From assembly GCA_003133405.1 (NCBI GenBank), contig PKXH01000093.1:5111-69110 (forward strand): DNA of 64,000 bases, read 5' to 3'. Positions 6,233 through 23,251 of the stretch are shown here, one piece after another. The notes beneath the pieces are model-generated. The model ran no database searches. It was not told the DNA's origin and saw only the letters and a program-made list of their open reading frames with translations. The position numbers were made by a program, and so were the translations under genes. The stretch is from Acidimicrobiaceae bacterium (GTDB lineage: Bacteria; Actinomycetota; Acidimicrobiia; Acidimicrobiales; RAAP-2). Within the stretch, counting starts at the first letter, position 1; each line of letters begins with the position of its first letter.

Positions 6233-7891
6233 ATGATCTCGCGTCGAGGCGGGCGCGCACTGGCACTCTCGTTCCTCTGTCTGGCGGCGGTCGCGCTGCC
6301 TGTCGCGCTCACCGGGGCCGCCACGGTGACGAACGCCAATGAGAACGCGCGCACGCTGACGTTGTCCGTGCCCGGACCCTTTAACGGTTGCTCGTATTTA
6401 GACTCCGGCGCCACGCCGACCACCGACGCGATCCTCGACCTCGTTCGGCCCTCGGCCTTTGTCACGAGCGCCAACAACACGTTGGCCGGCGAGAGCGGCG
6501 CGATCGCCTCGGCGGAGCTGATCTCGCTCCAGCCAGAGACGGTGATCTACACCATCGCCGCGGACCAGTCGTGGAGTAACGGTGTGCCCTTTCTGGGCAG
6601 TGACCTGGTGGGCTGGTGGCAGCGCGCCCGATCGCTCTCGAGTGCCGTGAGCGACGGGTACCGCGCGATCAAGACCCTCACCGTCTCGCCCGACGGACTG
6701 GTGGTCACCGCCGTCTTCGCGACGCCCTACGCCGACTGGAATCTGCTCTTTCGTGACGTCGAGGCGATCGGCACGCGCAAAGGATGCGCCATTCGCAATC
6801 TGGTGACGCGGCCCTCGCTCGGGCCGTACCGCGTCACCCGGGCCACGACCACTCGCGTCGTCTTGGCCATGAACACGAATTGGCCCCTCGACACCAACCG
6901 TTTTGGCCGAATCGTCATCACCGATTCCCCGTTATTCCCGAAGTCGGCGTCGACTGTCTTTGCGAGTTACTCCCTCGCGTTGAACCGGGGACAGATCGAA
7001 CTACTCAGCACCCATCCCACGCTGCTCAGTCACATCTTCTCTTCGAGCAACGTCGAGGAGTTGACCTTCGCCCCTTCGCGTCCCTTCACCCAGCGCGTCG
7101 TGGTGCGCAAGGCGCTTAGCTGGTCGATCGATCGCCAACTCTTGATCGACAAGCTCTTTGGCGCGGTGACCTTTTCTCCCTCCGTGGCCGCTTCGGTGAT
7201 CTACTCCCAGGGCCAGGCTCAGTATCCCGGGACCGTCGGCGCCGGACCCGGCGGTCAGACGACGACCACTTCGTCACCGGGCTCATCGTCTAACGGACTA
7301 AGTGACTGTCTCACGTGTGCTCTCGAGCTTTTGAAAGAGTCCGGATACCACCGGACCGTCGCGGGTTGGCTGAACGACGTGGGCCAGCTTCTCTCGATCC
7401 GACTCGGTGAGGGCCCGAGTGCCCTCGACCATTCGGTCGCGACATTCATTGAGGGTGACTGGAAGAAGTTGGGCGTTTCGACGGTACTCATCGAGGAGTC
7501 GAGTGACGCCGCGGCCGCCCGAGGCGCCGCGACCAACCAAGTCGACGTGGCGGTCTTGTCGCGTCCTACGTCAACGACGCCTTCATTCGCGGCACGCTCG
7601 TGGGCCGGCCCCGCCTATCCCAATACGTACCTCAGCGGCGTGAGAACAACCGCGCTGGCGACGCTCTTCACCCAAGCAACGGCCATCTTTAATCCCGTTA
7701 CGGCGTCGGCCACGTGGTTGCGCTTCGATCAGATCATCATGCGCAACTACTGGGCTCGACCGCTTTTTACGGCGCCTTCTATTGTGGTCTGGTCGAGTTC
7801 ACTTGTCACAGTACAGAACAGTCTCTCGGTCGCGGGTCTTGTTGATCAAGTACCAACTTGGTCAATTGCGCCACCTTTAACGCCGACTTAG
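6233..7891 (+). CDS. Secreted family-5-like solute-binding protein (no partner permease or ATPase genes nearby)
   Basis: 552 aa with an N-terminal signal-like segment (LALSFLCLAAVALPVALTGAA). Overall resemblance to peptide/nickel SBPs is by eye only. Confidence 0.5.
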   Translation: MISRRGGRALALSFLCLAAVALPVALTGAATVTNANENARTLTLSVPGPFNGCSYLDSGATPTTDAILDLVRPSAFVTSANNTLAGESGAIASAELISLQPETVIYTIAADQSWSNGVPFLGSDLVGWWQRARSLSSAVSDGYRAIKTLTVSPDGLVVTAVFATPYADWNLLFRDVEAIGTRKGCAIRNLVTRPSLGPYRVTRATTTRVVLAMNTNWPLDTNRFGRIVITDSPLFPKSASTVFASYSLALNRGQIELLSTHPTLLSHIFSSSNVEELTFAPSRPFTQRVVVRKALSWSIDRQLLIDKLFGAVTFSPSVAASVIYSQGQAQYPGTVGAGPGGQTTTTSSPGSSSNGLSDCLTCALELLKESGYHRTVAGWLNDVGQLLSIRLGEGPSALDHSVATFIEGDWKKLGVSTVLIEESSDAAAARGAATNQVDVAVLSRPTSTTPSFAARSWAGPAYPNTYLSGVRTTALATLFTQATAIFNPVTASATWLRFDQIIMRNYWARPLFTAPSIVVWSSSLVTVQNSLSVAGLVDQVPTWSIAPPLTPT

Positions 7892-7931: not shown

Positions 7932-8015
7932 GTCGGAGTGGCGGAATAGGCAGACGCGCCAGCTTGAGGGGCTGGTGCCCTTAGGGGCGTGTGGGTTCAA
8001 GTCCCGTCTCCGACA
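7932..8015 (+). tRNA. tRNA-Leu: tRNA-Leu, anticodon GAG, type II (long variable arm), no encoded CCA
   Basis: Acceptor GTCGGAG / CTCCGAC plus discriminator A. Anticodon arm CCAGC-TTGAGGG-GCTGG. 15-nt variable arm TGCCCTTAGGGGCGT. T arm GTGGG-TTCAAGT-CCCGT. Aligns column by column with E. coli tRNA-Leu architecture. The gene is followed by CTG, not CCA. Confidence 0.88.
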
Positions 8016-8368
8016 CTGGTAACTATGCTCAGTGCCCTTTCATCCAGAACTTTCTTCAAGCGGCAGTCATATTGGGCATCACCCAACGGTCCCCGTCTGG
8101 CCTTGGAGGGTCACTTGATTCGTCTGCCGACACCTCAACTTGGATCGAGATTTGGGGACTCGTCGACCAGTGGTCGGTCAAATTGGCCTTGGGCTGAAAG
8201 ATCGTACCGAAGCCCAGCAAAGCCGGACCAAGAACCTTCAAAACGATTTTGAAGACGGACGAAGTGTTCATGCCTAGATTCTAAGAGTCCATAAATTGAA
8301 TCCGTTCAGTTGGGTCGGTCTGCAATGTGGGGCGACTCCAGTTGGATCAGACTTTGAGACAGTCAAGT

Positions 8369-8413
8369 AGCCAGTGGAGGGTTGCATTCTTTGCACGTTG
8401 GACCTTCAACGCC
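8369..8413 (+). repeat. Degenerate copy of the array repeat (R0b)
   Basis: AGCCAGTGGAGGGTTGCATTCTTTGCACGTTGGACCTTCAACGCC matches the consensus CCAGTG...GGTTGCA...GC.CGT.GG blocks. Lies 23 nt upstream of R1. Confidence 0.4.
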
Positions 8414-8435
8414 GATCACGATGCAATTATGCTTA

Positions 8436-8481
8436 GCCGCCAGTGCAAGGTTGCAGATCTGTTGCGTCGGGTCTGCGACAC
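8436..8481 (+). repeat. Array repeat R1 (~48-nt tRNA-Leu-3'-end-like unit)
   Basis: GCCGCCAGTGCAAGGTTGCAGATCTGTTGCGTCGGGTCTGCGACAC. Confidence 0.85.
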
Positions 8482-8581
8482 GAGGCTGTTTTAACTCCGC
8501 TGAGCCACATCGTTGGCCGGCATTATTCGCCATCGCTCCCTTGTTGCCGCCAGGGTCGGGAAGTAAAGTAGTAAAGGCGAT

Positions 8582-8812
8582 ATGAACAATAGCGTTGATG
8601 AACTCATCCTTGATCTGCTTGAGTGGCTTGGACCAAAGCCTCGCCCATACTCTGAGGTTCTCGACGCGTGGCGAACGTCATGCCCGCGTCTTCCAGTCTG
8701 GGAAGAAGCGAACGATCGAGGATTCATCGAGCGGCAATTCTTGATTGGGCAGGGATCGCTTATTACCGTCTCCGCCATGGGACTCAAGCACTTGAATGAG
8801 AGCCGTCCATAG
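8582..8812 (+). CDS. Hypothetical small protein (76 aa), cassette cargo
   Basis: Only sizeable ORF between R1 and R2. Same orientation as the repeats. ATG start. Confidence 0.45.
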   Translation: MNNSVDELILDLLEWLGPKPRPYSEVLDAWRTSCPRLPVWEEANDRGFIERQFLIGQGSLITVSAMGLKHLNESRP

Positions 8813-8890
8813 CTACTGGCTCCATCTAGATACTGTTTGAACATCAAAGGTGAGCAAGTGATTCTCAGTTGAGGTAGTCAATCCACCATT

Positions 8891-8935
8891 CTCCAGTGCG
8901 AGGTTGAATTTCTGTGGCGTCGCGTCTCCGACACC
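8891..8935 (+). repeat. Array repeat R2
   Basis: CTCCAGTGCGAGGTTGAATTTCTGTGGCGTCGCGTCTCCGACACC, preceded by the T-arm-like GGTAGTCAATCCACC (8873-8887). Confidence 0.8.
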
Positions 8936-9012
8936 GGTCCGTGTTAACCTGAGCCGCCTACGGCCCCTTGCAAGTTGAGTGCAGCTGTGCCGCCTATTGA
9001 GGGGCAGACGCT

Positions 9013-10605
9013 ATGCGCAAGGGGATCCGTTTTTCGACGGTTGCAGCAAGTCTTTCGTTGGTTGCCTTAAGCCTCGCCGTTGGCGGCATTTCCGCCTCGA
9101 GTGCGACCGTGCACCAAAGGGTCGAGTCCCATACGGCGACGATCATTACCCCGACGGTGAATGCTAACTACACCCTCAATCCCGAAGCTGTGCACCTCAG
9201 CGCTCAAGATCTGCATTTTCAAACCAGTAACTACACCGTTGCTCAGCAACTGACCTACATCGGCACTACTGCAATCCACGTCGGCAATATCATCGTTGTA
9301 TTGACCGCCACTGGACCGTTCTATGGCACAGTTGTCGCCGTCAATGGCCAAACACTCTCAACAAAACCGGCGACGCTAGGAGATATCTTCGAGGTTTTGG
9401 ACCTCACCGTCTCGTCGGCGACCGGAAGCGCTTCGACCGCTGGCAAGGGCGCCGGGACCGGCGCTCCGGCGCTTTCCACCTCTAAAGGCGCGAATGGCAA
9501 CTCTCCCAAAGGTTCGTCCCTTGTTGCGGAATCATCAACCGGGTCCATACAAACCGATCCAACCGCTCGCTCGGGGTCGGCGCCTCTCTTGACCGCAAAT
9601 TGTGATCCGGGCTATCCCACGCCCACTGTCACCTTCAACGCCACCGCGAACGCCGGCACGTTCAACCTCCAAGCATCCTTCAGCTGGGCAGGCCATCTCA
9701 AGTCGGCGAGTATCACCGATAACCCATCGTTTACCGTTTCCATGAGTGCAGCCGTCGCCGGAAACGGCACGTGCACCTTGAGCCAAGATCTCTTCGACGT
9801 GGATCTGCCCACGATTGAGTTCGTCATTGGCTGGGTCCCCGTCTGGATTACCCAAGACTTGTCTGCAACGGCGACACTTGTCGTCACGGCCAACGGTTCG
9901 GCCGCCATCAACGTTGGCTATAGCGCCCACGCAACGCTCGGGGCCGCGAAGCCCCAGGGTGGGTCCTGGGGCGTCATCAGAACGGGGTCGGTCACCACTC
10001 CCGTCACCACAGCGTTCAACATCACCGCCCAGGCCACACTTGATGTGCCGGTGACTTACGAGGCGGCGATCTACGGGCTCGCCGGCCTGAGCGTCACGGC
10101 GGACCCGTTTGCTGCCCTCGCGGTGAATCCCCCACCAGCGTGCAAACCGACACCCTCTCTCAAGCTCGACGGAGGCTTGAAGGGCTCGATCGGCGCCTTC
10201 GTCCACCTCGGCTCGCTCTACAGCTGGGACAACACCTTCGCCCAGTGGACGTTCTTCACGACAAACTTGATAGATCACCTCAACAACTGCCCCCCGATCA
10301 CAACCCATCTCAACATCACCACGGTCTCCAATTCGATACACACTGTCTTTACCCCCGGGGTGCCAGCGGGGAACACCATTCCCCTGGGTTCAACCGTGAT
10401 TATCCAAGACGTGGGGACGGCGAGTAAGTACAAACTGACGTTGACAGGTCCAGACGGCCTGAAGCACATTTCCAATGTGAAACCGACGGTTCCCTATAAC
10501 TACGTCCTTTCGCAATCGGGGAACTATTCGGTGAGCATTGGGGGAGGCATGGTCGGCTTCGGCAACCCGACGATCAGTAAGCAACTGACAATCACCGTGC
10601 CCTGA
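9013..10605 (+). CDS. Secreted Ser/Thr/Ala-rich protein of unknown function (530 aa)
   Basis: Signal-like N-terminus (FSTVAASLSLVALSLAVGG). Long ORF with GAGGGG upstream of the ATG. No recognisable catalytic motif. Confidence 0.6.
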   Translation: MRKGIRFSTVAASLSLVALSLAVGGISASSATVHQRVESHTATIITPTVNANYTLNPEAVHLSAQDLHFQTSNYTVAQQLTYIGTTAIHVGNIIVVLTATGPFYGTVVAVNGQTLSTKPATLGDIFEVLDLTVSSATGSASTAGKGAGTGAPALSTSKGANGNSPKGSSLVAESSTGSIQTDPTARSGSAPLLTANCDPGYPTPTVTFNATANAGTFNLQASFSWAGHLKSASITDNPSFTVSMSAAVAGNGTCTLSQDLFDVDLPTIEFVIGWVPVWITQDLSATATLVVTANGSAAINVGYSAHATLGAAKPQGGSWGVIRTGSVTTPVTTAFNITAQATLDVPVTYEAAIYGLAGLSVTADPFAALAVNPPPACKPTPSLKLDGGLKGSIGAFVHLGSLYSWDNTFAQWTFFTTNLIDHLNNCPPITTHLNITTVSNSIHTVFTPGVPAGNTIPLGSTVIIQDVGTASKYKLTLTGPDGLKHISNVKPTVPYNYVLSQSGNYSVSIGGGMVGFGNPTISKQLTITVP

Positions 10606-10743
10606 CCATTCCCACCCGTAACTAGAAGCACCCTCCGCACTTCCTTCAAGACCCAGAGTCACTTAGGGCGACTGGCTAGCGAATGTAGAGTTTCGTTCAT
10701 CATGTGGGTGAACATCAGTGGGGCACTTCAGGATTCCAACCGA

Positions 10744-10787
10744 GCCGCCAGTGCAAGGTTGCAGACTTGTCACGTCGGGTCCGTGAC
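10744..10787 (+). repeat. Array repeat R3
   Basis: GCCGCCAGTGCAAGGTTGCAGACTTGTCACGTCGGGTCCGTGAC. The right stem is fully Watson-Crick (GTCACG/CGTGAC). Confidence 0.85.
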
Positions 10788-11056
10788 TTGAAGTGTGTTT
10801 GCTTGCCTCCAGACCTTCTCTGCGTCGTAGAATGTGGAGATGGTGGACTCAGAACGCTTCTCAGGAATGTTGCCGAATCATTCGCGGCGGCTTCCATGGG
10901 CAGTACGTCATCGCCATCCTCAAAACCGACTGCTACGGCGACTCTCTTGGATCTGGAGCAATCCAATCACGATTGCAATCCCAAGTCAGATTCACAATCG
11001 TCGGGAAGACATTCGTGGTCTTGCCGGACGTCTTAGGCGACGGCCCTAGTCGATCA

Positions 11057-11104
11057 GTCGCCAGTGACTGGTGGCAGACCTGTGGCGTCGGGTCTCCGAC
11101 ACCA
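11057..11104 (+). repeat. Array repeat R4
   Basis: GTCGCCAGTGACTGGTGGCAGACCTGTGGCGTCGGGTCTCCGACACCA. Confidence 0.85.
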
Positions 11105-11191
11105 GTGATGACCCGTTTGGTTGACATCCCACAGGCGCAAAGACCATGGAGTGCAAAGTTCGCTCGGGCGTTCGTGACCGAGCTCAAGGAT

Positions 11192-11548
11192 TTATTCCAG
11201 TTCTTTCCAGTGCTCTCGACCGAAGAGACGACCGTATCGAGCAGTGAGGGAGGGACCCTCATCGCGGGCAGTGTCCGGATGCAGAACGAGGGTACCTTCG
11301 GGTGCCGGTAGAGCCGCTACTTGCTCGTCGGTCAACGCACAACGGATCAATGTCGTTGTGATTTCCGTGATTTGATCTCGGTCTACAAATCGCACTCCGT
11401 GCTTGGTCTTAACGGCAATACCGTCGAAGATGTCTAACTCCGGGATCCACAAGACATGTTCGACCGTTCCGAACTGGGTATCCGTGGAACTGAGTAAGGG
11501 TGTGCCAACTGGCACCCCTCGATATGAAATCGGCTGTCCTTCGTCCAT
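11192..11548 (-). CDS. Hypothetical protein, possibly PRC-barrel-like (118 aa)
   Basis: Only plausible ORF between R4 and R5. Opposite orientation to the repeats. The PRC-barrel resemblance (GTVEHVLWIP...DGIAVKT) is weak. Confidence 0.4.
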   Translation of the reverse strand: MDEGQPISYRGVPVGTPLLSSTDTQFGTVEHVLWIPELDIFDGIAVKTKHGVRFVDRDQITEITTTLIRCALTDEQVAALPAPEGTLVLHPDTARDEGPSLTARYGRLFGREHWKELE

Positions 11549-11674
11549 GGGCTTCCCTTCCTAATTCACTCGAATCTACCTGAGGTGTTGGATTCAAGAG
11601 TTAAGTCGCCCGCTGGCGCGTATGGGGTGGCGCCCGTCGTGGTCGGCAATCGACGGAGTCGACGGTTCATCAAG

Positions 11675-11737
11675 GTGTGGGTGGTTCAAGTCTCCAGTGC
11701 CTGGTTGCAGATCTGTTGCTGCGGGTCTCCGACACCA
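11675..11737 (+). repeat. Array repeat R5 with an extended tRNA-Leu T-arm remnant
   Basis: GTGTGGGTGGTTCAAGTCTCC (11675-11695) matches tRNA 7989-8011 GTGTGGGTTCAAGTCCCGTCTCC. It is followed by AGTGCCTGGTTGCAGATCTGTTGCTGCGGGTCTCCGACACCA. Confidence 0.85.
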
Positions 11738-11791
11738 ACCGTTCCGCGGTCGCGATCTGATTAAGGATGTTTCCGACCTAGCGTTGCTGAC

Positions 11792-12880
11792 GTGAAACTC
11801 TTCACCCGGTCCAGGCTCGCTGTCGGCGTAGTAACTGTGATGGCTATCCTTGTTGCGTACTGCGTTCCAATCGGTAATATCTCACGCGCTTATGCTTCGA
11901 ACGCACCGAAGGGCGCTGCCACACTTTTTTCGGTGGTGAGAAAGATTAGCTTCGGCAATTACGGTCCAGGCGCGAGCATTGCCGCTGTTGACGGACAGTC
12001 AATTTTCCTGACCGGAACCTTCCTTCACGGCAACAGCGCTCCAGCAACTCTGGTTCGTGTCGATCTCCAAAGTTTCACGGTGACGGCGCGAGCAAGGCTT
12101 CCAAGCGTCACGAGCGTCGCCTATGGCGACGACGCACTCTGGTGGGCCACCGGTGCGCCGCTCGGCAACGCTGGCACCACATTGACTCCCGGCCATGGGC
12201 GATTACTACTCAAGGTTGACCCTACGAGCCTGAAGGTCTTGGCACGCTTCGTGCTTCCAGGGCCGACGCTGCTGGTCACGGTGGCGCAGGGCAACGTCTG
12301 GGTTGCGACATCGACAGATCTATTCCGCGTTAACCCAAAGACCGGTGCGATCATTGCTAAGGTCGCTCTCGGTTTTTCCCCGGTGGCACTGGCTCCGTCT
12401 TTCAACAGTGCGTGGCTCTATGCACTTGGCGGTACAGCTAGAAGCCACTTGATATTGGCCGACTACTCTGCGGTCTCCGGACACCGTCTCGGTATCCGTC
12501 AGATTGCGGACTTCAGTGGCGGCCCGCTGGCTGTGGTACGTGGGGGAGTTTGGATTCCGGTGCAGAGCACCAAGACTCAGTCCACGACAGCGCGACTCTT
12601 CAAAGGTCGACGCTTCACTCCCAGCTCATCAGTGGGAAAGTTCACATTTGATACCCAAGCGTATGTCGAAGCCAACATTCTGTGGCTGATCGACGCGGGC
12701 GGACGTGGGCCGACAGTGTGCGCCAATCCCGCGAACGGGATCATACGAGCCAAAGGGAGTCCGGTCGGAGTTGAGTACGGAGCTGCGGCGATTGACGGGG
12801 GCAGTACGTACCTGCTGCGCAACACTGGTACCAACGAATCTCTGCTCAAGATAGTCGCTTCGTCGGATTGCTCTCGATGA
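11792..12880 (+). CDS. Secreted or membrane-anchored protein of unknown function (362 aa)
   Basis: GTG start. N-terminal hydrophobic anchor (LAVGVVTVMAILVAYCV). Long uninterrupted ORF. Confidence 0.6.
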   Translation: MKLFTRSRLAVGVVTVMAILVAYCVPIGNISRAYASNAPKGAATLFSVVRKISFGNYGPGASIAAVDGQSIFLTGTFLHGNSAPATLVRVDLQSFTVTARARLPSVTSVAYGDDALWWATGAPLGNAGTTLTPGHGRLLLKVDPTSLKVLARFVLPGPTLLVTVAQGNVWVATSTDLFRVNPKTGAIIAKVALGFSPVALAPSFNSAWLYALGGTARSHLILADYSAVSGHRLGIRQIADFSGGPLAVVRGGVWIPVQSTKTQSTTARLFKGRRFTPSSSVGKFTFDTQAYVEANILWLIDAGGRGPTVCANPANGIIRAKGSPVGVEYGAAAIDGGSTYLLRNTGTNESLLKIVASSDCSR

Positions 12881-12964
12881 GACCGCGTTGACGCAATGCG
12901 ATTATTTGCACATCGCCAATTCTGACGGGTCAAACCGCCAATATTCCGAGCCACATGGAACATA

Positions 12965-13513
12965 ATGGGGAACGTGAGTCGCACAACACCCACGCTGTTC
13001 GTCATGGTTGGTCTGCCAGCATCTGGGAAGAGCACACGGGCCAAGCAGATTGAAGAAGAACGTCGCGCCTTGAGGCTGACTCCCGACGAGTGGATGATCC
13101 CACTGTTCAACGACAATGACGCCAACGGGAAGCGTAACGTCCTCGAGGGCCGCTTTATTTGGCTCGCGCTTCGCGCCCTGCGCCATGGTATCGACGTCGT
13201 CTTGGACTTCGGTGTCTGGGGCAAGGACGAGCGAACCGCCCTCCGAGCCCTCGCCGCCGCGGCGGGGGCGTCGTGCGAACTCGTCTATCTCGAGATTGAC
13301 GAAGACCAACAGCGACGACGGCGTGACGCTCGTGCTTCTGAGGATTCTGAGACGACCTTCGACATCTCCGATGAAGACCTTGATGAGTACCGGCGACGTT
13401 TCGTGCCTCCCAATGACGCCGAACTATCAGAAGCCGAACTTGACCCGCCTCCGGCTGGCTACACCAACTGGAGCTCGTGGGCCTCCGAATGGTGGCCAAC
13501 ATCGTTCCAGTGA
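12965..13513 (+). CDS. P-loop (AAA_33-type) kinase/ATPase
   Basis: Walker A VMVGLPASGKST near the N-terminus. 182 aa, typical size for a small-molecule or polynucleotide kinase fold. Confidence 0.75.
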   Translation: MGNVSRTTPTLFVMVGLPASGKSTRAKQIEEERRALRLTPDEWMIPLFNDNDANGKRNVLEGRFIWLALRALRHGIDVVLDFGVWGKDERTALRALAAAAGASCELVYLEIDEDQQRRRRDARASEDSETTFDISDEDLDEYRRRFVPPNDAELSEAELDPPPAGYTNWSSWASEWWPTSFQ

Positions 13514-13563
13514 GCGTCACGCTGCTCGCCAGTGTTTGGGACCGACTCGCTCCCTCTAATGAA

Positions 13564-13612
13564 GCCGCCAGTGCCCCTTGGTGGCAGAGCGAGCGGGACG
13601 GCCCTGCGACAC
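13564..13612 (+). repeat. Array repeat R6a (diverged right half)
   Basis: GCCGCCAGTGCCCCTTGGTGGCAGAGCGAGCGGGACGGCCCTGCGACAC. The left stem GCCGCC/GGTGGC pairs at all six positions. Confidence 0.7.
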
Positions 13613-13646
13613 GAACCCACACGGTTCACCTCATCCGCTAAAGAGA

Positions 13647-13682
13647 GGTTGCAGACCTGTTACGTCGGGTCTCTGACACCAG
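13647..13682 (+). repeat. Array repeat R6b (right two-thirds only)
   Basis: GGTTGCAGACCTGTTACGTCGGGTCTCTGACACCAG. Lacks the CCAGTG left end. Lies 34 nt after R6a. Confidence 0.75.
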
Positions 13683-13763
13683 CCAGAAACTCACGACAAT
13701 TCGCTGTCGTTTGATACCAGAACTGGCAAGTGGGTTTTCTAGCATTCTCTGCCCAGTCGGCCT

Positions 13764-14099
13764 CTATTTCGAAGTTGCGAGTAAGTAAATGACCATGGCT
13801 AGTAAGAGGATGAACGAGGCAACGAACACCAAGCCATTTATTGCTCTGACAACGGAGACAATCCGCTTGAGCCAGGTCGGGGTCTGAGAAACGTGACGTC
13901 GATAAAGGACTGCCCAAACAGGAGTTAGCAGGGCGACCAGGACCATCGGAAGCAATAAGGCAACCAAGATCGATCCCGAAGTCACAGCTACCTTTATACC
14001 GTGTAGTTCGCATTCCTTCGCCTTGACTGCGATTGGCAAATCGCAGTTTTTGTAGTGCTCTGCACTAAAGACCAATCCTGTCGTTAATTGAGTCGCCAA
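13764..14099 (-). CDS. Hypothetical small membrane protein (111 aa)
   Basis: Two hydrophobic helices. Lies in a visibly AT-richer pocket. No homology recognisable. Confidence 0.4.
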   Translation of the reverse strand: MATQLTTGLVFSAEHYKNCDLPIAVKAKECELHGIKVAVTSGSILVALLLPMVLVALLTPVWAVLYRRHVSQTPTWLKRIVSVVRAINGLVFVASFILLLAMVIYLLATSK

Positions 14100-14188
14100 T
14101 TCTTGATACCAGACCCATCACGTCGGTCAGCGTCCACACGAATTGCGGTTGGGGACCTAGATCGTTCCCATCTCTCGATGTCTGGGAG

Positions 14189-14647
14189 TTGAAGAGACAG
14201 ACTGTTGGAGTGACGGGCATTAGTGGCATTGTGCGCCGCGCAACTTCAATGGACCTTCAAGCGGTGTTGGAGCTTGACCGCATTGCGCCAGTTGGTCACG
14301 AGCGGGGTGAACTTCTCACGACTCGTGTGCAGTCCGGCGAGGTCATCCTCCTTGAGCACGAAGGGCGCGTATCAGGCTACGCCGTCATTAGATCCCACTC
14401 GTTCTTTGGGCGCGACTTTGTCGAGTTGCTGGCGGTGGCCGCTAGCGAACGCCGTCACGGCGTTGGCAGCCATTTACTCCAGCAAGCCGTCGCTCTGTCC
14501 TCTAGCAGTCGGATCTTCACCTCGACCAATCGATCCAATATTCAGATGGTCGGCATGTTAGAGAAGGAAGGCTGGAAATTCAGTGGACAACTTGAGGGGA
14601 TCGACGAGGGAGATCCAGAGCTGGTTTATTACAAAACCTCACCGTGA
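14189..14647 (+). CDS. GNAT-family N-acetyltransferase
   Basis: Motif A RRHGVGSHLLQQAV. The start is uncertain: TTG at 14189 or in-frame GTG at 14231. Confidence 0.75.
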   Translation: MKRQTVGVTGISGIVRRATSMDLQAVLELDRIAPVGHERGELLTTRVQSGEVILLEHEGRVSGYAVIRSHSFFGRDFVELLAVAASERRHGVGSHLLQQAVALSSSSRIFTSTNRSNIQMVGMLEKEGWKFSGQLEGIDEGDPELVYYKTSP

Positions 14648-14684
14648 GTTCCTCTTCGACACAATCAAGACTCGGACGGATCAA

Positions 14685-14728
14685 GCCGCCAGTGAAAGGG
14701 GGCAGATCGTTTGCGTCGGGTCGCGGAC
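14685..14728 (+). repeat. Array repeat R7
   Basis: GCCGCCAGTGAAAGGGGGCAGATCGTTTGCGTCGGGTCGCGGAC, preceded by the T-loop-like GGATCAAGCC. Begins 38 nt after the GNAT stop. Confidence 0.8.
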
Positions 14729-14876
14729 TTAGCGGTTCTCAGATATCTCACTAGACACTTGGGCATCCGTAACGACCGAGGCGCCGATGCGTGAACTCTT
14801 CGTCGCCTGTTTCGCCGCTCGACGCGACGCTAAGGCTTTGTGCGAAAACAAAGCTAACTATAAGTAGTATGACGCC

Positions 14877-15407
14877 ATGTTGAGGTTACGCACGATTTGG
14901 GCGATTGGATTATTGCTCTCGGGAGCTCCGGTGTTGGCGACTTCTGCTTCGGCGTCGACGCGACCAGAGCCTGCATGTTCAAGCGCTCAGTTAGTTGTCT
15001 TAGCGAGCGGATCACTCGCTGCCGCCGGGAACGGCTCTATGGCATTCGACGTAGTGAATCGCGGCGCGAGTTGTCGGATTGATGGATATCCCTCGGTGAC
15101 CTTTCTCAACGCAATAGGTCGTGCGGTCGACAATAGGGACTTTCACAATTCGTCCTCGATGCTCTTCGCAGAACCGAAAGCGTCAATGGTCACTATTGCG
15201 CGTAACGGTGTCGCGACGTTCGGGGTTTCCTGGGGCAATAATCCCGTCAATGATGAGGCGTGCCCACTGTCGGCCAACGCCGTGGTCGAATTGCGCAGTG
15301 GCGTGGAAAACTTCTGGGGCGAGGTTCCGATTGATCCTTCACCGTGTGGAAACTATTTGGTCGTGACACCAATCGAGTCTGGGGCGTGGCCGCGACCAAA
15401 CGGCTAG
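14877..15407 (+). CDS. Secreted DUF4232-like protein
   Basis: Signal peptide. The pattern C-x3-QL...AAGN...N.G..SC.IDGYPSV is typical of DUF4232. Confidence 0.65.
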   Translation: MLRLRTIWAIGLLLSGAPVLATSASASTRPEPACSSAQLVVLASGSLAAAGNGSMAFDVVNRGASCRIDGYPSVTFLNAIGRAVDNRDFHNSSSMLFAEPKASMVTIARNGVATFGVSWGNNPVNDEACPLSANAVVELRSGVENFWGEVPIDPSPCGNYLVVTPIESGAWPRPNG

Positions 15408-15432
15408 TCGATTTATGGTCTTCTGGTGGCGA

Positions 15433-15482
15433 GTCGCCGATGCTTGGTTGCAGACTTGTTGCGTCGGGCCTCCGACACCAGG
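15433..15482 (+). repeat. Array repeat R8
   Basis: GTCGCCGATGCTTGGTTGCAGACTTGTTGCGTCGGGCCTCCGACACCAGG. Begins 26 nt after the stop codon. Confidence 0.85.
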
Positions 15483-15763
15483 AAGGCTCAGGCCACCGAT
15501 CGGCAATACTCGGTTTCGGAACATGTCGCGGCGCTCTTCCGACATGAACGCCGGCGTTCTGCCACCGTCCAGTATCTGATAGTAACGCGACGTCGTCAGG
15601 TCCCAAGTTCCGGTTCATTCAGTTGGGTCATTACTCGGACGATTTCGGGGATTCTCGGATCGACTTCGCCGAACAGTCCACACCTTGGGGAGAGACCCAG
15701 TCAATGGCTCGTTGTGACGAAGGTCCCTAGCGGCTGGCAGAGACGACGGGTAATGCTGAAAAC

Positions 15764-16450
15764 GTGAGTAAGAAGGTGGTGGTCGCAGTTGTCAGCGCCT
15801 TGGTCGTTGTGGGCGCACTGGGGGTTGCGGCGGGGCGGCAATGGGGGTCAGCGCCGACGTCGCCGACGTCATCGACCACCAGCACGCTTCGCCAGGTCCC
15901 GCAACCTGAAACGGCAATATGGCCCTTCGCTTCGACCGTGACACGATTTGGTGACCCAGTACTGGCGGCCCAGGCGTTCGCCACGGACTACCTGGGAATG
16001 GTCACTCCAATAATGGGTGCCTTTCAACAGGGCGATAGTCGTTCGGGTGAAGTTCCAGTCAGAGCCACACCAACCGGCGCCGTGACTTCGATTCTGGTAC
16101 GAGAGTTGACTTTGGCGAACTCGTGGTGGGTAATTGGCGCGTCATGTACGGACATCGTCGTGGCGGCCCCTTCGTCATCTGAAAGCATTTCTTCACCAGT
16201 GAAACTCCGAGGACGAAGTACCGCATATGAAGCGGTCGTCAACGTCGAAGTTCGCCAGGACGGGACGCTCGCCGCGCTGAAGAGTGACACCGTGATGGGT
16301 GGCTCCATGGGTGTCATGGGCGCGTTTACTAAGTCGATGGCGTTCACAGTGCCGTCGTCTCGAGGAGGAGCGCTCTTGTTCCGCACGCTCTCCGCCAAGG
16401 ATGGGCATGTCATTGAGGCCAGCGTCGTCCGCGTTGCTTTTCTGAAGTGA
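15764..16450 (+). CDS. Membrane-anchored protein with a Gmad2-type Ig-like domain (tentative)
   Basis: N-terminal TM segment, Ser/Thr linker and a C-terminal beta-rich domain (ISSPVKLRGRSTAYEAVVNVEVRQDG...) resembling Gmad2. Confidence 0.55.
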   Translation: MSKKVVVAVVSALVVVGALGVAAGRQWGSAPTSPTSSTTSTLRQVPQPETAIWPFASTVTRFGDPVLAAQAFATDYLGMVTPIMGAFQQGDSRSGEVPVRATPTGAVTSILVRELTLANSWWVIGASCTDIVVAAPSSSESISSPVKLRGRSTAYEAVVNVEVRQDGTLAALKSDTVMGGSMGVMGAFTKSMAFTVPSSRGGALLFRTLSAKDGHVIEASVVRVAFLK

Positions 16451-16527
16451 TGTGCCACTCAATGCCGGCGGCGGTCCTCGGCACTATCGGACCAAAGCAG
16501 AAGCGTTAGCCGAAGTAGATTCAACCA

Positions 16528-17274
16528 ATGGTTGACAACAATCGGAAGCGAGCCACGGTGATCGGCCTGATTTCTGTCGCAACGATTGTCGTCGTGGCTC
16601 TGATCGTTGCGAATAGAGCGCAGAGTAATCGGCCTTCGGCGCCACAGTCGGTCAACGCATCTGCCGGCAATGGCTTCGCCAACGTGAGTTGGTCACGGCC
16701 CACGTCAACCGGGGGTCGCGAGTTGACAAGATATATCGTGACCCCACATCCGGCTAATGGTGCGTGCGTCACCACGGCCGCGACCACTACGTGCACCATC
16801 TGGGAACTGACCAATGGAACGTCGTATACGTTTACGGTTGTTGCGAAGAACGCTAAGGGGGCCGGTCCGAGTTCGAGCCCTTCGAGCGCGGTCACACCGA
16901 GAACTTCGATTCGAGTGCTGCCGATCTGTGACGTGGGCGTCGTCAGACCGACCAAAGCGGTCTCTGCGCAGGTTGTCGCTGCCGTCTCCGCCTACTATGC
17001 AGCACGACATCTGACCCCTATCAAGTTCGTGCGAAGCCAAGAGACGATTCTCAATGTCCACGAGTGGCCAGTTGGCTTCAATTACTGCCGGAATGTGGGC
17101 GCAGGCGTGAGTGGCGAAGGCGGATTCGTCCCCTCGAACGCCACCGCGGCGGTGATGGTGCTTGTGGATCACAAGCCTGATCCGGTCACCGGATTCTCAA
17201 CACATTTCGTAAGCGTGGCACTGATTCCAAGTGTTGGTTGGAGGGTCGTCGGCGAGTTCACTGGGTGGCTCTAG
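16528..17274 (+). CDS. Membrane-anchored fibronectin type III domain protein
   Basis: PSAPQSVNASAGNGFANVSWSRPTSTGG...YTFTVVAKNAKGAGPSS is a clear FN3 signature. Confidence 0.65.
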   Translation: MVDNNRKRATVIGLISVATIVVVALIVANRAQSNRPSAPQSVNASAGNGFANVSWSRPTSTGGRELTRYIVTPHPANGACVTTAATTTCTIWELTNGTSYTFTVVAKNAKGAGPSSSPSSAVTPRTSIRVLPICDVGVVRPTKAVSAQVVAAVSAYYAARHLTPIKFVRSQETILNVHEWPVGFNYCRNVGAGVSGEGGFVPSNATAAVMVLVDHKPDPVTGFSTHFVSVALIPSVGWRVVGEFTGWL

Positions 17275-17332
17275 CGCATAGTGGCATCCATGAGGCGGCC
17301 CCCAATGCCTATCAGGGCAATGAGGTCTCGGG

Positions 17333-17380
17333 CTTCCAACGCAAAGTTGCACTTCTGTTGCGTCGGGTCGCCAACACCAG
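17333..17380 (+). repeat. Array repeat R9
   Basis: CTTCCAACGCAAAGTTGCACTTCTGTTGCGTCGGGTCGCCAACACCAG. Confidence 0.8.
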
Positions 17381-17402
17381 TCAGATTTCGGATGCTGAAC
17401 CG

Positions 17403-18221
17403 TTATAAGACCGAGCTCGGCTTGTGGGCGAGGATCGTGAACGACAGTGGAATTCGGGGACGACCTTCGGGTACGACGAGCAAGCCCGACTCGGTCTCCT
17501 CCAGCCAGGGGAACTGATGAAATAACGTCCAGTCGTGTTCGGTCAGCGAATCAAGCACGAGACCGTGTCCAAGTAATGCCGCAACCATCTCGCCAATGGA
17601 ATGGTTCCACTCGTAGGTTCTAATGGCGCTGAGTTCTTCGCCGTCAGTGTATGTAGAAGTGCTGTCAAAAATTTGAGGTTCATCGGGATCTTCGTAGTAG
17701 CTGTAGACGACTCGCTCTCCGTCACCGTCGAAGCACGAAGAAAACGGGTGAACGTCGTGGAGATACAGCCTGCTCCCCGGAGCGAGGAGGTCCGCCACGA
17801 CCTCACCCCACGCAGCCACGTCCGGCAGCCAGCAAAGCGAACCGAGGCTGACGTAAACAACGTCGAATCGCTTCCGCTGGAGTGCCTCGGACGCGTCGTA
17901 GACATTCGCGCAAACGAAGGACGCGTGCTCGGATAGCCCTGCGCGTTCCGCGAGTGAATTGGCCTCGTCAATGGCCGCTGTAGAAAAGTCGAGACCGGTG
18001 ACGTTCGCCCCGGCTCTGGCCCAACTCAAAGTATCCATCCCGAAATGACATTGCAGGTGTACCAGTGTTTTTCCTTCTAGGTCTCCTAGCGCCTCGACCT
18101 CTCGAGGTGGTGGTCCTGGTGCGTTGTGAAGCCAACCTTCAACATCGTAGAACCGAGACTTAGCGTGCACCTCAACGCGACTATTCCAATTCTTAAGATT
18201 GGATTCGAGTCGAGGTTCCAT
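17403..18221 (-). CDS. Class I SAM-dependent methyltransferase
   Basis: HLQCHFGMDTLSWARAGANVTGLDFS (motif I region). 272 aa. Confidence 0.8.
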   Translation of the reverse strand: MEPRLESNLKNWNSRVEVHAKSRFYDVEGWLHNAPGPPPREVEALGDLEGKTLVHLQCHFGMDTLSWARAGANVTGLDFSTAAIDEANSLAERAGLSEHASFVCANVYDASEALQRKRFDVVYVSLGSLCWLPDVAAWGEVVADLLAPGSRLYLHDVHPFSSCFDGDGERVVYSYYEDPDEPQIFDSTSTYTDGEELSAIRTYEWNHSIGEMVAALLGHGLVLDSLTEHDWTLFHQFPWLEETESGLLVVPEGRPRIPLSFTILAHKPSSVL

Positions 18222-18390
18222 TCGCTCAGAGTACTTTCACCGAATGAGTCCATGGGGAACCTCAAACCACCCTCACTTGTTTTCCAAAAGTCCGTTGAGC
18301 CTCCAGTACAAGGAGGCATTCCTGTTGCTTCGGGCCTCTGGCTTTTGACATGAATCGACATGTTTCGATCTCGGGTGGGAGGATTGAGTT

Positions 18391-18765
18391 GTGAAACGCG
18401 CATTAATCGATTGGGACTTCGCCGCCGGAGGTATCTGGATGATTAGGCCACCAGGCGATGCAGCCCCAGCGCCCGCAGAAGATCATCGCAGCCAATGGAG
18501 TGGTGCTCCTCTCGACCGCTCTAAGCAAATACGACCTTGGAGCGATCTATTGACAGTTTCACTCTTGGACAGATTGCAGAGTTGGAACGATCGGGGCTGC
18601 ACATTATCGCGACCTCCCTTCGGGACTCAGTTCGATGAACAAGATTGGGATTCTTTCTACCGTGATGGACGAGAATTGGCTGAGTCGACTCAGGTGGAGC
18701 TTGGCAATCACTGGCAAGTTCTCTGGGCTGCGGATGGCGCCTGGCACTTCGTACGACTTCCTTAG
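18391..18765 (+). CDS. Hypothetical protein (124 aa, Trp-rich)
   Basis: GTG start. Fills the space before R10. No recognisable motif. Confidence 0.45.
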   Translation: MKRALIDWDFAAGGIWMIRPPGDAAPAPAEDHRSQWSGAPLDRSKQIRPWSDLLTVSLLDRLQSWNDRGCTLSRPPFGTQFDEQDWDSFYRDGRELAESTQVELGNHWQVLWAADGAWHFVRLP

Positions 18766-18793
18766 TTGCTTTCGGAACAACCTTGACCGGTTA

Positions 18794-18856
18794 GACGCCA
18801 GTGTCTGGCAGCGGCCGGTGCGTCGTAGGAGACTCATAGCGTCGGGTCTTCGCCAC
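18794..18856 (+). repeat. Array repeat R10 (with a ~19-nt internal insertion)
   Basis: GACGCCAGTGTCTGGCAGCGGCCGGTGCGTCG[TAGGAGACTCATAGCGTCG]GGTCTTCGCCAC. Confidence 0.7.
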
Positions 18857-18885
18857 GTGAACCCTCGTCACTGTACGGTCTGTTC

Positions 18886-19398
18886 ATGACAGAACTCCCA
18901 ATGTTCGACGCCGGTGGCGGAAGCCTTGTGTCGTTCGTTCGTCTCGACAGTGCGTCGTTGGAGGATCAGGGCGTCCCGTCACCGTTCGCTTGTTCTCTTG
19001 TCATCGTTCAATGGGGCCAACAAGTGCTGCTCGGCTTCAACGTCAGCCGGCAGCAGTGGGAACTACCGGGCGGAGCGGTGGAGCCGGGTGAATCGGCTCA
19101 CGAAGCGGCGCTTCGGGAACTAGCGGAAGAAACTGGTATCCGGGTTCATCGAATCTCGCTCGTCGCACGAGCTGAATTCATCTTCGGAGGCGAAGCGACC
19201 ACATACCTGGCCGCAGTGTTTGCCGTCGTTCTTGGCAGCCCCCCGGAACTAGTTCAGAGTGACGAGTTGAACAGTTTCATTTGGTGGGATCCGACTGGCG
19301 AGTTGTGGGATGGTCTGAGTCCCCTTGACGCAGAGGTCATTCGTCGCTGCCTTTCTCACGAGGAGGGGGCTCGCGCGCCGTCCGCACCTGGCCTCTGA
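18886..19398 (+). CDS. NUDIX hydrolase
   Basis: Nudix box GGAVEPGESAHEAALRELAEETGI. Confidence 0.82.
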   Translation: MTELPMFDAGGGSLVSFVRLDSASLEDQGVPSPFACSLVIVQWGQQVLLGFNVSRQQWELPGGAVEPGESAHEAALRELAEETGIRVHRISLVARAEFIFGGEATTYLAAVFAVVLGSPPELVQSDELNSFIWWDPTGELWDGLSPLDAEVIRRCLSHEEGARAPSAPGL

Positions 19399-19446
19399 AC
19401 CCGGGGGAGATTGAAGTTTAAATCGCGAATGCGCCATAGTTAACGA

Positions 19447-19878
19447 ATGACTGTAGATGGAACCTCCAATGTGCGAACTCTTGATCCCGTCGTGGTGGAG
19501 GCGTTGAAGGCGATTACACAGCGTGTCTACCACCGTCGTGGACCAAGGCTCCAGGATAAATTTCGTAGCTATCACAGCATGCTGGATAGCCATTCACGCG
19601 ACTACGCGATCTCGGCGTTCAAGCATTTGCGACATGGCGGCTACGAATTACCGCCATTCTTAGTGCGGCGTTGGGCCGTTGCTAACGGGTGGAAGCGGAC
19701 TGACGCACAATTGCTCGATGATTACGCGGCAGGAGTATTGGCGGGCGTGCAGTATCACCATGCCGACCCTTTTGGTCGTGGTGCCATAAGTATCTGGCGA
19801 AGGGATGCTGTAGGAAAGGAGCCTTGGCAGGATCCGGGTCGGCCCGAGCAAGGCGTGCCACTCACTCGCAGAGACTAA
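19447..19878 (+). CDS. Hypothetical protein (143 aa)
   Basis: ATG start. Co-oriented with the NUDIX gene in the same repeat-bounded unit. Confidence 0.5.
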   Translation: MTVDGTSNVRTLDPVVVEALKAITQRVYHRRGPRLQDKFRSYHSMLDSHSRDYAISAFKHLRHGGYELPPFLVRRWAVANGWKRTDAQLLDDYAAGVLAGVQYHHADPFGRGAISIWRRDAVGKEPWQDPGRPEQGVPLTRRD

Positions 19879-19921
19879 CGATTTGAGTTGTGCCGATAGG
19901 GACTCATCGATTTAGGCGAGA

Positions 19922-19966
19922 GCCTCAGCAAAGTGGCATTCCTGTCACGTCGGGTCTCCGATACCA
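19922..19966 (+). repeat. Array repeat R11
   Basis: GCCTCAGCAAAGTGGCATTCCTGTCACGTCGGGTCTCCGATACCA. Confidence 0.75.
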
Positions 19967-20025
19967 ACAATCACCGGCACTTCGAGTCTGGTTTCGATAA
20001 GTAACGCATTCATCACCGGCTCAGA

Positions 20026-20301
20026 TTGGTTAGTGACTATTTTCGCGGAGACTCAGAGCTCTGCTTGACTGATGGGATGTCCTCGGTGGCCATCACCATC
20101 TACGGAGTGTGCGCCGTCTCATTCATGATGGCGATGTACGCGCTTGAGCGGCGTAACAAGTGGTTCATCCTGGCATTTGCGCTCGGGTGCCTCTTATCTA
20201 GCGTCTACGGATTCTTGTCTGGAGCGTGGCCCTTTGGCGTCGTCGAGTTCGTGTGGTCTGGAATCGCGATTCGTCGATACCGGAGCACAGACACGCTCTG
20301 A
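20026..20301 (+). CDS. Small integral membrane protein
   Basis: Three hydrophobic segments. The start is uncertain: TTG at 20026 or ATG at 20077. Confidence 0.5.
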   Translation: MVSDYFRGDSELCLTDGMSSVAITIYGVCAVSFMMAMYALERRNKWFILAFALGCLLSSVYGFLSGAWPFGVVEFVWSGIAIRRYRSTDTL

Positions 20302-20336
20302 CTCATGGCCTAATAGTTATCTCTTAGAGATGCGTT

Positions 20337-21101
20337 GTGACTGTTTTGCAGATTGCGGGGGCCGTGATGAGAGTGCGCCCGCGCTGGTACTGCCATCCCA
20401 GATCGGAATACGCGACATTAGTCGACGAGCACGCCAAAGGCGACGACGATCCTAAACTGTTCCATATGATCGACCACATTCCCGACACGGACGAGCGAAG
20501 AACTCACTGGGAATCCGTCTACGAGCTCAACCAGGTCGACGGCGTCAGCTGGTATCAACAAGCGCCACTTGTGACTTTGGAACTTGTGGACATTCTCGGC
20601 GTCGAGAAAGACGCAGGGGTGATTGATGTCGGAGGCGGCGCGTCAATCCTCGTCGATTATCTGTTATCCAGAGGCTTCACCGACCTGACCGTCCTCGATA
20701 TCTCGACGAGCGCGCTTCGTGTGAGCCGAGAGCGGGTTGGCCCGGATGCTCATGTGACGTGGGTAGCCCACAATCTCCTGACATGGGAACCAGCGCACCC
20801 TTACGACCTTTGGCACGACCGAGCCGTGTTCCACTTCCTGTTGCCCCACGAGATCAAGGTCTACCAAGATCTGGTACGCCGTTCAGTTGCTCCCGGCGGA
20901 TCCGTGATCATGGCCACGTTCGCACCGGACGGGCCGGAGTGGTGCTCTGGACTGCCGGTGACCCGCTACAACGCCGCTCAACTAGGGGGAATCCTCGGTG
21001 ACGAGTTCACAGTGGTCGTTCAGCGCAAAGAAGTCCACACGACGCCCAGCGGCGCTCTTCAGCCGTTCACCTGGATTGCCGCTTCACGGAACCTGGCTTA
21101 A
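20337..21101 (+). CDS. Class I SAM-dependent methyltransferase
   Basis: VIDVGGGASILVDYLLSRGFTDLTVLDIS (motifs I and II). Confidence 0.8.
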   Translation: MTVLQIAGAVMRVRPRWYCHPRSEYATLVDEHAKGDDDPKLFHMIDHIPDTDERRTHWESVYELNQVDGVSWYQQAPLVTLELVDILGVEKDAGVIDVGGGASILVDYLLSRGFTDLTVLDISTSALRVSRERVGPDAHVTWVAHNLLTWEPAHPYDLWHDRAVFHFLLPHEIKVYQDLVRRSVAPGGSVIMATFAPDGPEWCSGLPVTRYNAAQLGGILGDEFTVVVQRKEVHTTPSGALQPFTWIAASRNLA

Positions 21102-21156
21102 CTCTTGGGGATGTTCCACGTCGTTAAGTCGGAGTCATGGTCACTGGGTGCGAATC

Positions 21157-21195
21157 CTCCAGTCGAAGATTATTGACGTCGGCTCTCCGACACCA
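21157..21195 (+). repeat. Array repeat R12 (shortened middle)
   Basis: CTCCAGTCGAAGATTATTGACGTCGGCTCTCCGACACCA, preceded by the T-loop-like GGGTGCGAATCC (21146-21157). Confidence 0.7.
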
Positions 21196-21213
21196 ACTAA
21201 GCAATAATGGAAT

Positions 21214-21861: not shown

Positions 21862-22017
21862 GGGCGATGGTTCATAAGATTTCGCGGCGCCGCCCCGGGA
21901 GGCGATATTGAACCCGGTTAGGCAAACGCCATTGCAAGAGCGCGAAGCAGCGTGATCTGCATTGGTGACGATTGTGATTCCGGGCGCGCCCTTTAGGTTG
22001 GGGGTAACGGGCACGAC

Positions 22018-22518: not shown

Positions 22519-22588
22519 TCGGTCCGTCTTTATTGATCCGGGCAGTTGAGGGATTAGTTCGACGATCGTGAGTTAATGAGGGAAAGCC

Positions 22589-23244: not shown

Positions 23245-23251
23245 GGCGACT

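Follow-up and report, generated by a model that had tools for sequence, protein, structure and literature searches.

The tRNA-like repeats behind tRNA-Leu(GAG) in an acidimicrobial genome as probable attachment sites for a cassette-stacking large serine recombinase

Why should the 3′ end of a tRNA gene recur again and again in the DNA that follows it, often with a CCA that the gene does not encode? The question is raised by a stretch of 64,000 nt (the window) from an Acidimicrobiaceae bacterium (assembly GCA_003133405.1, contig PKXH01000093.1, positions 5,111 to 69,110), in which repeats of ~49 nt form an array directly 3′ of a tRNA-Leu(GAG) gene (7932-8016). A first-pass annotation read each repeat as a tRNA 3′ end split by a palindromic insert of ~30 nt, and proposed either half sites of recombination around a GTCTCC core or a mimic of a tRNA minihelix. 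We are confident, short of certainty, that the repeat serves a large serine recombinase (LSR) as its attachment site and that this enzyme stacks small gene cassettes behind tRNA-Leu(GAG) in Acidimicrobiales.

The repeat array

ARAGORN and Rfam agree on the tRNA-Leu(GAG) gene, which lies on the + strand and is the sole tRNA gene in the window. About 18 copies of the repeat, all on the + strand, lie at 8366-23247, and one more lies at 37877-37925; the total count is 16 to 19. The copy under study, at 11689-11737 (AGTCTCCAGTGCCTGGTTGCAGATCTGTTGCTGCGGGTCTCCGACACCA), is immediately preceded by GGTGTGGGTGGTTCAAGTC. Each copy ends on the right in the 3′ strand of the tRNA acceptor stem, often followed by ACCA, and CTCCGACAC(CA) recurs at every site as far as 37925. 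With at most one mismatch, GTCTCCGACAC matches the + strand 10 times against 2.8 expected, a number reached in none of 100 shuffles. The gene itself ends in ...GTGTGGGTTCAAGTCCCGTCTCCGACAC (…GGGTTCAAGTCCCGTCTCCGACAC) and is followed by TGG, with no encoded CCA (…GACAC|TGG). What the first-pass annotation said of these sequences is accurate throughout: the tRNA end and the right end of the repeat are as it described them, eight window copies carry ACCA, and the 14-mer GGTTGCAGATCTGT is common to the copies at 8449, 11703, and 23213.

G+C content drops from ~65% upstream to ~56% exactly at the tRNA and rises again after ~38 kb, and this composition profile delimits a cassette island at 8017-37925 on the + strand. 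The island consists of the array with recognizable sites, to 23247, and a distal part (23248-37876). Homologues of two distal segments (23252-24603 and 25923-26199) are flanked by sites in relatives, and the same sites are missing in the window; the distal genes derive from cassettes whose sites have been lost.

Site family and anatomy

A search with a degenerate left-arm pattern turned up 33 stretches among genome assemblies, almost all of them metagenome-assembled genomes of Acidimicrobiaceae or Acidimicrobiales, and at least 120 in metagenomes; it had no matches in viral contigs. Our related set comprises 164 loci (0.9 Mb; L numbers below), in which a site profile gave 461 hits; 153 loci bear sites. 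Site orientation is mixed in just 2 of these 153, and the median spacing between sites across related loci is 757 nt.

Numbered from the last G of CGTCGGG, the conserved site spans −36 to +12 and reads A-G-Y-C-G-C-C-A-G-T-G…GGTTGCAGAYCTGTYR-CGTCGGG-YCTCCGAC-ACCA. Its left part is far better conserved than its right; of 328 sites, 142 have an intact CTCCGACA and 127 carry ACCA. The full, element-borne site is an imperfect palindrome of ~54 bp, CAAGGTTGCAGAYCTGTYRCGTCGG - G[YC]T - CCGACRYRACAGRTCTGCAACCTTG, centered on YC (+1/+2): the two arms of the L054 and L087 sites agree about this center at 17 of 20 positions past CCGAC. What had been taken for an insert splitting a tRNA end is a recombinase half-site, which in units that carry a recombinase mirrors the other arm. 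The leftmost segment, AGYCGCCAGTG (−36 to −26; 11689-11699 in the window), is strongly conserved, lies outside the palindromic half-site of ~25 nt, and is not mirrored on the side of the recombinase; within it lies the second GYCKCC hexamer, which the first-pass annotation had noticed at the left end of the window repeats and which sits at −35 to −30 throughout the family. Inspection of the site revealed no evident sigma-70-type promoter.

T-loop-like sequence had also been reported to the left of several copies. This is true of the copy at 11689, where 11673-11691 scores 12 against the tRNA T arm, an outlier that no control flank among 319 sites reached, and it may be the fossil of a secondary-site event at a TC dinucleotide. 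Across the family the resemblance is barely above control flanks: the mean score is 4.86 versus 4.54 and 4.64, and scores of at least 8 occur at 8 sites versus 1 and 6. The zinc-ribbon motif of A118 sites is shifted by 5 bp between attP and attB; we compared the outer motif GGTTGCAGA with the T-loop sequence GGTTCAAGT as a shift of this type and dropped the idea, as the offset is ~10 bp, not 5.

Could the repeat act as RNA? As a transcribed tRNA-like minihelix (GTCGG-GTCT-CCGAC-ACCA) it would be a signal for RNA processing, CCA addition, or punctuation between genes, and the consensus does allow a 5-bp hairpin followed by ACCA. However, the 328 sites contain 0 to 2 compensatory changes per stem position versus 19 to 42 broken pairs, with a left side that is almost invariant; four copies folded as single strands, in either orientation, score no better than shuffled sequences (z, −0.3 to −1.2); the tRNA is the only Rfam match; and the sites are co-oriented while open reading frames (ORFs) lie on both strands. 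Moreover, the palindrome reaches ~25 nt per side only in units that carry a recombinase, as expected of a protein-binding site. A nearly invariant left side, a variable right side, and few compensatory changes indicate a protein-binding DNA site rather than an RNA stem, and the minihelix, the second proposal of the first-pass annotation, is in our judgment very improbable.

Nor does the array behave as a chromosomal integron, or an integrase-less cluster of attC sites resembling a tRNA by chance. Short, mostly single-gene cassettes between conserved elements of ~50 nt would suit an integron, as would the contents: toxin-antitoxin pairs, GNAT acetyltransferases, methyltransferases, and a glyoxalase. 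The defining features refute it: on inspection the sites lack the R″/L″-L′/R′ boxes (RYYYAAC … GTTRRRY) and the GTTRRRY motif, neither strand forms a stable hairpin, and a mutual-information search found no long-range covariation, only signals between neighboring positions or from subfamilies. IntI is absent, the sole tyrosine recombinase in the window being XerD and the only other one found an AICE integrase in L087 (discussed below), and the ORFs are not co-oriented. Hence there is next to no chance, in our estimate, that these arrays are integrons.

Two window genes were considered as the array recombinase and rejected. XerD (305 aa, 46389-47306) lies in a canonical recN-pyrG-nudix-xerD context (42470-47306) and is treated as a housekeeping protein; the array sites are also unlike dif. 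The ORF at 23252-24514, a candidate integrase, encodes a BNR-repeat protein. As to position, the cluster of recN, CTP synthase, a NUDIX-sized ORF, and XerD lies 4.5 to 9 kb past the terminal site of the island.

Position of the crossover

Cassettes shared between arrays locate the point at which one unit gives way to the next. In alignments of such cassettes, homology spans the whole left arm and ends after CGTCGGG(YC), and the 5′ ends of cassettes start around GAC|. Among 339 sites, we compared 38 pairs that have only the upstream cassette in common and 37 that have only the downstream one: variable positions of the left arm (for example, −8 and −7) track the upstream cassette, whereas +3, +4, and beyond track the downstream cassette. 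Because −7 goes with the upstream and +3 with the downstream cassette, the switch lies inside the invariant segment from −6 to +2, at the hexamer G-Y-C|T-C-C. Recombination inside or next to GTCTCC, as foreseen by the first-pass annotation, is thus borne out by the junctions.

Base +1, which is T or C, is uniform within an array (majority fraction, 0.906 versus 0.667 when shuffled; reached in 0 of 2,000 shuffles), and in 8 of 8 loci it is the same as tRNA nt 65. These patterns place the predicted crossover at the left edge of the tRNA-identical block, at tRNA nt 65/66; in the window gene, the inferred crossover dinucleotide TC occupies 8007-8008. At the site under study, the left arm covers 11689-11725, the candidate crossover TC 11726-11727, and the tRNA tail (CTCCGACACCA) 11727-11737. 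A 2-bp staggered cut at YC would be the corresponding reaction of a serine recombinase.

tRNA-Leu(GAG) as the target

The 3′ end of the tRNA gene is the chromosomal attachment site, with the T arm as its attB-type left half. Homology between the window and four related genomes ends at 8016, so that synteny breaks exactly at the end of the gene; the upstream order uvrC-rapZ-cofD-gap-pgk-tpi-secG-SBP_bac_5-tRNA is also found in L154, L158, L162, and L164. In nine further loci (L005, L008, L024, L032, L054, L071, L076, L102, and L135), tRNA-Leu(GAG) likewise lies 5′ of an array; arrays of this kind in this syntenic position are found in many Acidimicrobiales genomes. As in tDNA islands, the insertion is in the 3′ part of a tRNA gene, the gene is restored, and a displaced 3′ fragment lies at the far end.

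Sequence on the right of nt 65/66 comes from the adjoining element, so an encoded CCA is present or absent according to which element that is. Related tRNA-Leu genes with an encoded CCA, whose existence the first-pass annotation had suggested checking, occur in 12 of 17 loci; the window has TGG and L154 has TAA in its place. The window gene lacks CCA because its first cassette supplies …ACAC|TGG. The tRNA-identical tail of each repeat is, as suspected, the part that restores the tRNA.

The gene occurs as two alleles with linked bases, C50/C65 and T50/T65 (positions 7992 and 8007 in the window; compared with L032, L054, L154, and L158). The window carries the T allele, in which the T stem has two G.U pairs, and the inferred crossover dinucleotide starts at nt 65.

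The large serine recombinase

When ORFs were clustered over the site-bearing loci, one recombinase recurred: an LSR with Resolvase, Recombinase, and Zn_ribbon_recom domains. The LSR has 477 aa, and in L054 its gene is antisense to the array, with its 3′ end overlapping the tRNA. In a search of PDB, the catalytic N-terminal domain of the L054 protein resembled TP901-1 integrase and gamma-delta resolvase, and residues 155-442 resembled A118 integrase.

The gene is physically joined to the site. The LSR C-terminus, …GCKPVVSET-GLEPTRP, is the reverse complement of the core plus the T arm, the codons of …VVSET being the reverse complement of GTCTCCGACAC. In the arm on the LSR side, CCGAC-ACCACAGGTTTGCAACCTTG, 17 of the 20 positions past CCGAC mirror the left arm of cassettes. 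Among 120 clusters of LSR homologues (55 to 100% identity, Acidimicrobiales), 56 end in …SE[TA]GLEP[TA]RP, the antisense T arm of the tRNA, and 35 in …SE.RR.., the antisense left arm; the core motif is present in another 11, so that 102 of 120 read across the core. Linkage of LSR and site is seen in L054, L075, and L162 to L164. In L162, the LSR adjoins tRNA-Leu in the same synteny as the window; in L164, it is internal to an array rich in toxin-antitoxin cassettes; and the same complete genome has a second array with an LSR paralogue, L163 (OY970279.1, 1.66 Mb), whose locus has no tRNA. C-terminal LSR remnants of 35 to 186 aa, always antisense, abut cores in about 20 loci. These links suggest that an LSR of this family is the catalyst. 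The first-pass annotation, correct in its guess of recombination sites around a core, had not foreseen a serine recombinase.

Two side observations concern these loci. In L040 (~7495-7555), the 15-nt core is tandemly triplicated, and the antisense recombinase frame reads VVSETVVSETVVSET. The L163 array has ~10 sites and adjoins a Glyco_hydro_15 gene. In L018, which has a tRNA-Lys and an inverted site, we found no recombinase.

Actinomycete integrative and conjugative elements (AICEs) also use the 3′ end of tRNA-Leu(GAG), and their tyrosine integrase might act on the cassette sites and leave the arrays as by-products. In L087, an array site is followed directly by the gene for a 342-aa tyrosine integrase, together with an AbrB-like ORF; homologues of this integrase (73 to 77%) reside in elements of ~9 kb (Int, FtsK/SpoIIIE, Rep_1) right after tRNA-Leu, in the synteny of the window; and the AICE repeat includes CTCCGACAC(CA). 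The AICE site, however, consists of a tRNA-like left half (TTCAAGTCCCGYCTCCGACACCAA) between ACGGGAnATyTCCCGT motifs and has no cassette left arm; the integrase occurs in only 1 of 153 loci selected by site, versus about 20 with an LSR or its remnants; and the mirror image of the cassette arm is found in the LSR gene, not in the AICE. We consider an AICE origin of the arrays improbable and treat the AICE as a co-tenant of the tRNA rather than as the cassette recombinase.

The related idea that the AICE integrase shares the CACGTCGGG half-site was ruled out by the true AICE attR at L154:18379 and L158:17629. For reference, the AICEs span 9416-18395 in L154, 9392-17650 in L158, and 1-2050 in L087, with a block of identity to the tRNA of 16 to 24 nt.

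Cassettes and their reassortment

Cassettes without an LSR have a median length of ~760 bp and mostly carry one gene. Their products include GNAT acetyltransferases, methyltransferases, NUDIX, DUF4232, AAA_33/zeta-like kinase, glyoxalase, CPT, and APH proteins, as well as secreted proteins with fn3 or Ig-like domains and toxin-antitoxin pairs; ORFs lie on either strand (128 versus 106).

Such cassettes need never have been mobile if the array is a graveyard, in which complete LSR elements inserted serially and each lost its recombinase in place. Consistent with this, LSR 3′ remnants still stand beside many cores, distal cassettes of the window have no sites, and most sites lack the full right arm. 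The behavior of cassettes between arrays speaks against it: 22 of 29 homologous pairs of LSR-less cassettes (0.5 to 1.4 kb) lie in different arrays with unrelated neighbors on both sides and boundaries at the core, which means that cassettes reassort as units. In addition, at most sites a different sequence begins immediately behind the tRNA tail and no trace of a recombinase is left, an arrangement that random deletion would not give, and left arms are much better conserved than right sides. In situ decay is therefore an unlikely account of the arrays as a whole, if less so than the AICE.

Proposed mechanism

With the LSR as the probable recombinase, the repeat follows from where the exchange would occur. 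Exchange at the central YC, equivalent to tRNA nt 65/66, would replace everything to the right of the crossover: the 3′ strand of the tRNA acceptor, the discriminator base, and CCA. Any DNA able to land beside the tRNA must restore its 3′ end, hence the CTCCGAC-A-(CCA) carried by each site. The left arm (−36 to 0) goes with the upstream cassette and the right side with the downstream cassette. An autonomous unit comprises an antisense LSR gene whose last codons run across the core, and arrays would grow by repeated insertion at the tRNA. LSR-less cassettes retain just the left half-site and the tRNA tail; they may be reshuffled in trans if the LSR is promiscuous in the manner of Ccr enzymes, or may ride with a neighboring LSR unit that uses a distal site as an alternative end (accretion). 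Any site might become the tRNA junction once the DNA upstream of it is excised, and a release from the tRNA constraint could account for right sides that have decayed at internal sites.

Several observations weigh against this scheme. Most sites look like attR-type hybrids (left half-site, core, and tRNA tail), and only 38 of 327 sites (~12%; 3 in shuffles) have an outer right arm in mirror image to the left. Canonical LSRs, in the absence of a directionality factor, recombine only attP with attB; given attR-like sites, tandem growth and shuffling would need relaxed, Ccr-like specificity or an accessory factor. The conserved site reaches 11 nt (AGYCGCCAGTG) past a normal LSR half-site of ~25 bp. 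By itself, the resolution of −6 to +2 fits either a 2-bp exchange or a tyrosine-type overlap of 6 to 8 bp. No circular cassette contigs were found among the 164 loci, and as regards activity on the window array, the 64-kb window contains neither an LSR gene nor a remnant of one.

Other features of the island

All sites below are on the + strand. Behind the tRNA, the array opens with a degenerate site (8366-8414), the first of a 69-nt doublet whose second member (8435-8483) has a conserved left arm and core. Cassette sites follow at 8888-8936, 10743-10791 (right side decayed), and 11056-11104, the last with a left-flank cassette common to L001, and then comes the site under study. Next, a degenerate site (13566-13614) is the first of a 67-nt doublet with the cassette site at 13633-13681. 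A degenerate site at 14091-14139 forms the 5′ boundary of a GNAT cassette common to L018 and L153; at the cassette site that follows (14684-14732), homology to L018 covers the left arm and ends after CGTCGGG.

Further cassette sites lie at 15432-15480 (with a CC-type core), 17331-17379, 18298-18346 (right side decayed), and 18810-18858; the cassette between the last two (18347-18803) is the second after the tRNA in L032 as well. The right arm of the cassette site at 19918-19966 (CAACAATCACCGG) resembles the antisense 3′ end of a recombinase gene, and a partial site at 21147-21195 has a degenerate left arm with core and tail intact. The cassette site at 23133-23181 is the first of a 66-nt doublet, followed by one with a divergent right side (23199-23247), after which comes the BNR-repeat gene cassette (23252-24514, − strand) common to L002. 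The terminal site of the island, at 37877-37925, has an outer right arm (CACAGATCGG…) that partly mirrors the left arm, and G+C content beyond it is host-like.

The doublets in the window (8402/8471, 13602/13669, and 23169/23235) have counterparts in L019, L049, L151, and other loci, and 50 of 306 spacings are exactly 66, 67, or 69 nt. Their linkers of 17 to 20 nt are specific to the length class (for example, GAACCAGCACGGyTCAGG), and the doublets may be empty or minimal cassettes.

Three island ORFs (9013-10605, 11792-12880, and 26411-27349; 530, 362, and 312 aa) have N termini resembling signal peptides and no Pfam match. Two paralogous ferric-reductase-like FAD/NAD membrane proteins are encoded around ApbE and an FMN-binding protein at 33273-37760. 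Tandem repeats of 24 nt and 15 nt occur at 35994-36193, and (GTCGTT)n occurs at 33046-33080.

Relation to known systems and implications

We found no description of an LSR cassette system at tRNA-Leu in the searchable literature. The closest published analogues are the ssrA islands of Dehalococcoides and the staphylococcal cassette chromosome (SCC). The ssrA islands have an integrase, DsiB, which is a CcrB-like serine recombinase, and many of their units lack the integration module and are proposed to be cis-mobilizable by accretion (McMurdie et al. 2011, PMC3146451). In both systems, tandem elements lie 3′ of a gene for a small stable RNA, a serine recombinase is encoded on the reverse strand beside attL, and the boundary repeat comprises the gene 3′ end plus an extra conserved upstream motif that does not match the gene. 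The arrays described here differ in target (tRNA-Leu(GAG), not transfer-messenger RNA) and in host (Acidimicrobiales, Actinomycetota). They have a single LSR, with no six-gene integration module or second small recombinase seen, and the LSR reading frame crosses the core. Whereas ssrA units are many kilobases long, the units here have a median of ~760 bp, with up to about 19 sites in 15 kb. The likeness of DsiB and Ccr to this LSR is one of description, the PDB search indicating general LSR homology only.

SCC and SCCmec elements, of 10 to 60 kb, are integrated by Ccr LSRs at the 3′ end of rlmH. Integration by an LSR at a conserved gene 3′ end and tandem composite islands between direct repeats are common to both systems, as are units without a recombinase (pseudo-SCC in staphylococci) and the need for relaxed specificity in pairing sites; here, too, tandem elements lie at a single conserved gene, with direct repeats between them and some of them without a recombinase. 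A tRNA target and mostly single-gene units set the present arrays apart. From the ssrA islands and SCC alike, they differ chiefly in their miniature, integron-like cassettes and in an LSR frame that runs out within its own site.

Tyrosine integrases likewise target tRNA genes, in pSAM2-type AICEs, Islander-type tDNA islands, and the tycheposons of Prochlorococcus. There, as here, a copy of the tRNA 3′ end restores the gene, displaced fragments mark the ends, and arrays form in tandem at one tRNA. Their identity blocks are 16 to 50 nt long and include the T arm; here, only ~11 to 13 nt on the right of the central dinucleotide match the tRNA, and a recombinase-specific arm makes up the left half.

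With integrons, the arrays share short cassettes that are promoter-poor, mostly hold a single gene, and terminate in a conserved recombination element, near whose right end the crossover lies; reassortment among arrays, arrays without an integrase, and toxin-antitoxin cassettes are further similarities. They differ from integrons (IntI tyrosine recombinase, attC/attI) in enzyme class; in having double-strand palindromic sites rather than folded single-strand hairpins; in their platform, a tRNA gene instead of attI with a Pc promoter; and in cassette ORFs on either strand.

A broader proposal, which we put forward as an even bet, is that the arrays are the serine-recombinase counterpart of the integron in Acidimicrobiales, an independent invention of cassette genetics based on double-strand sites and another class of enzyme. 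tRNA-Leu(GAG) would be the capture platform, an LSR “driver” cassette would have a frame ending in its own attachment site, and hundreds of single-gene cassettes, with one half-site and a tRNA tail, would be individually captured, excised, and reshuffled.

One simple rule explains the striking pattern of the repeats: to recombine inside a tRNA gene, DNA must bring the tRNA end with it. The system appears widespread in soil and peat Acidimicrobiales, where an LSR probably keeps up arrays of very small cassettes in the manner of an integron. If cassettes move singly, this would be a second, mechanistically independent system of cassette capture; it would also offer a set of natural LSRs whose sites are well defined and whose partner rules are unusually relaxed, of interest for genome engineering.

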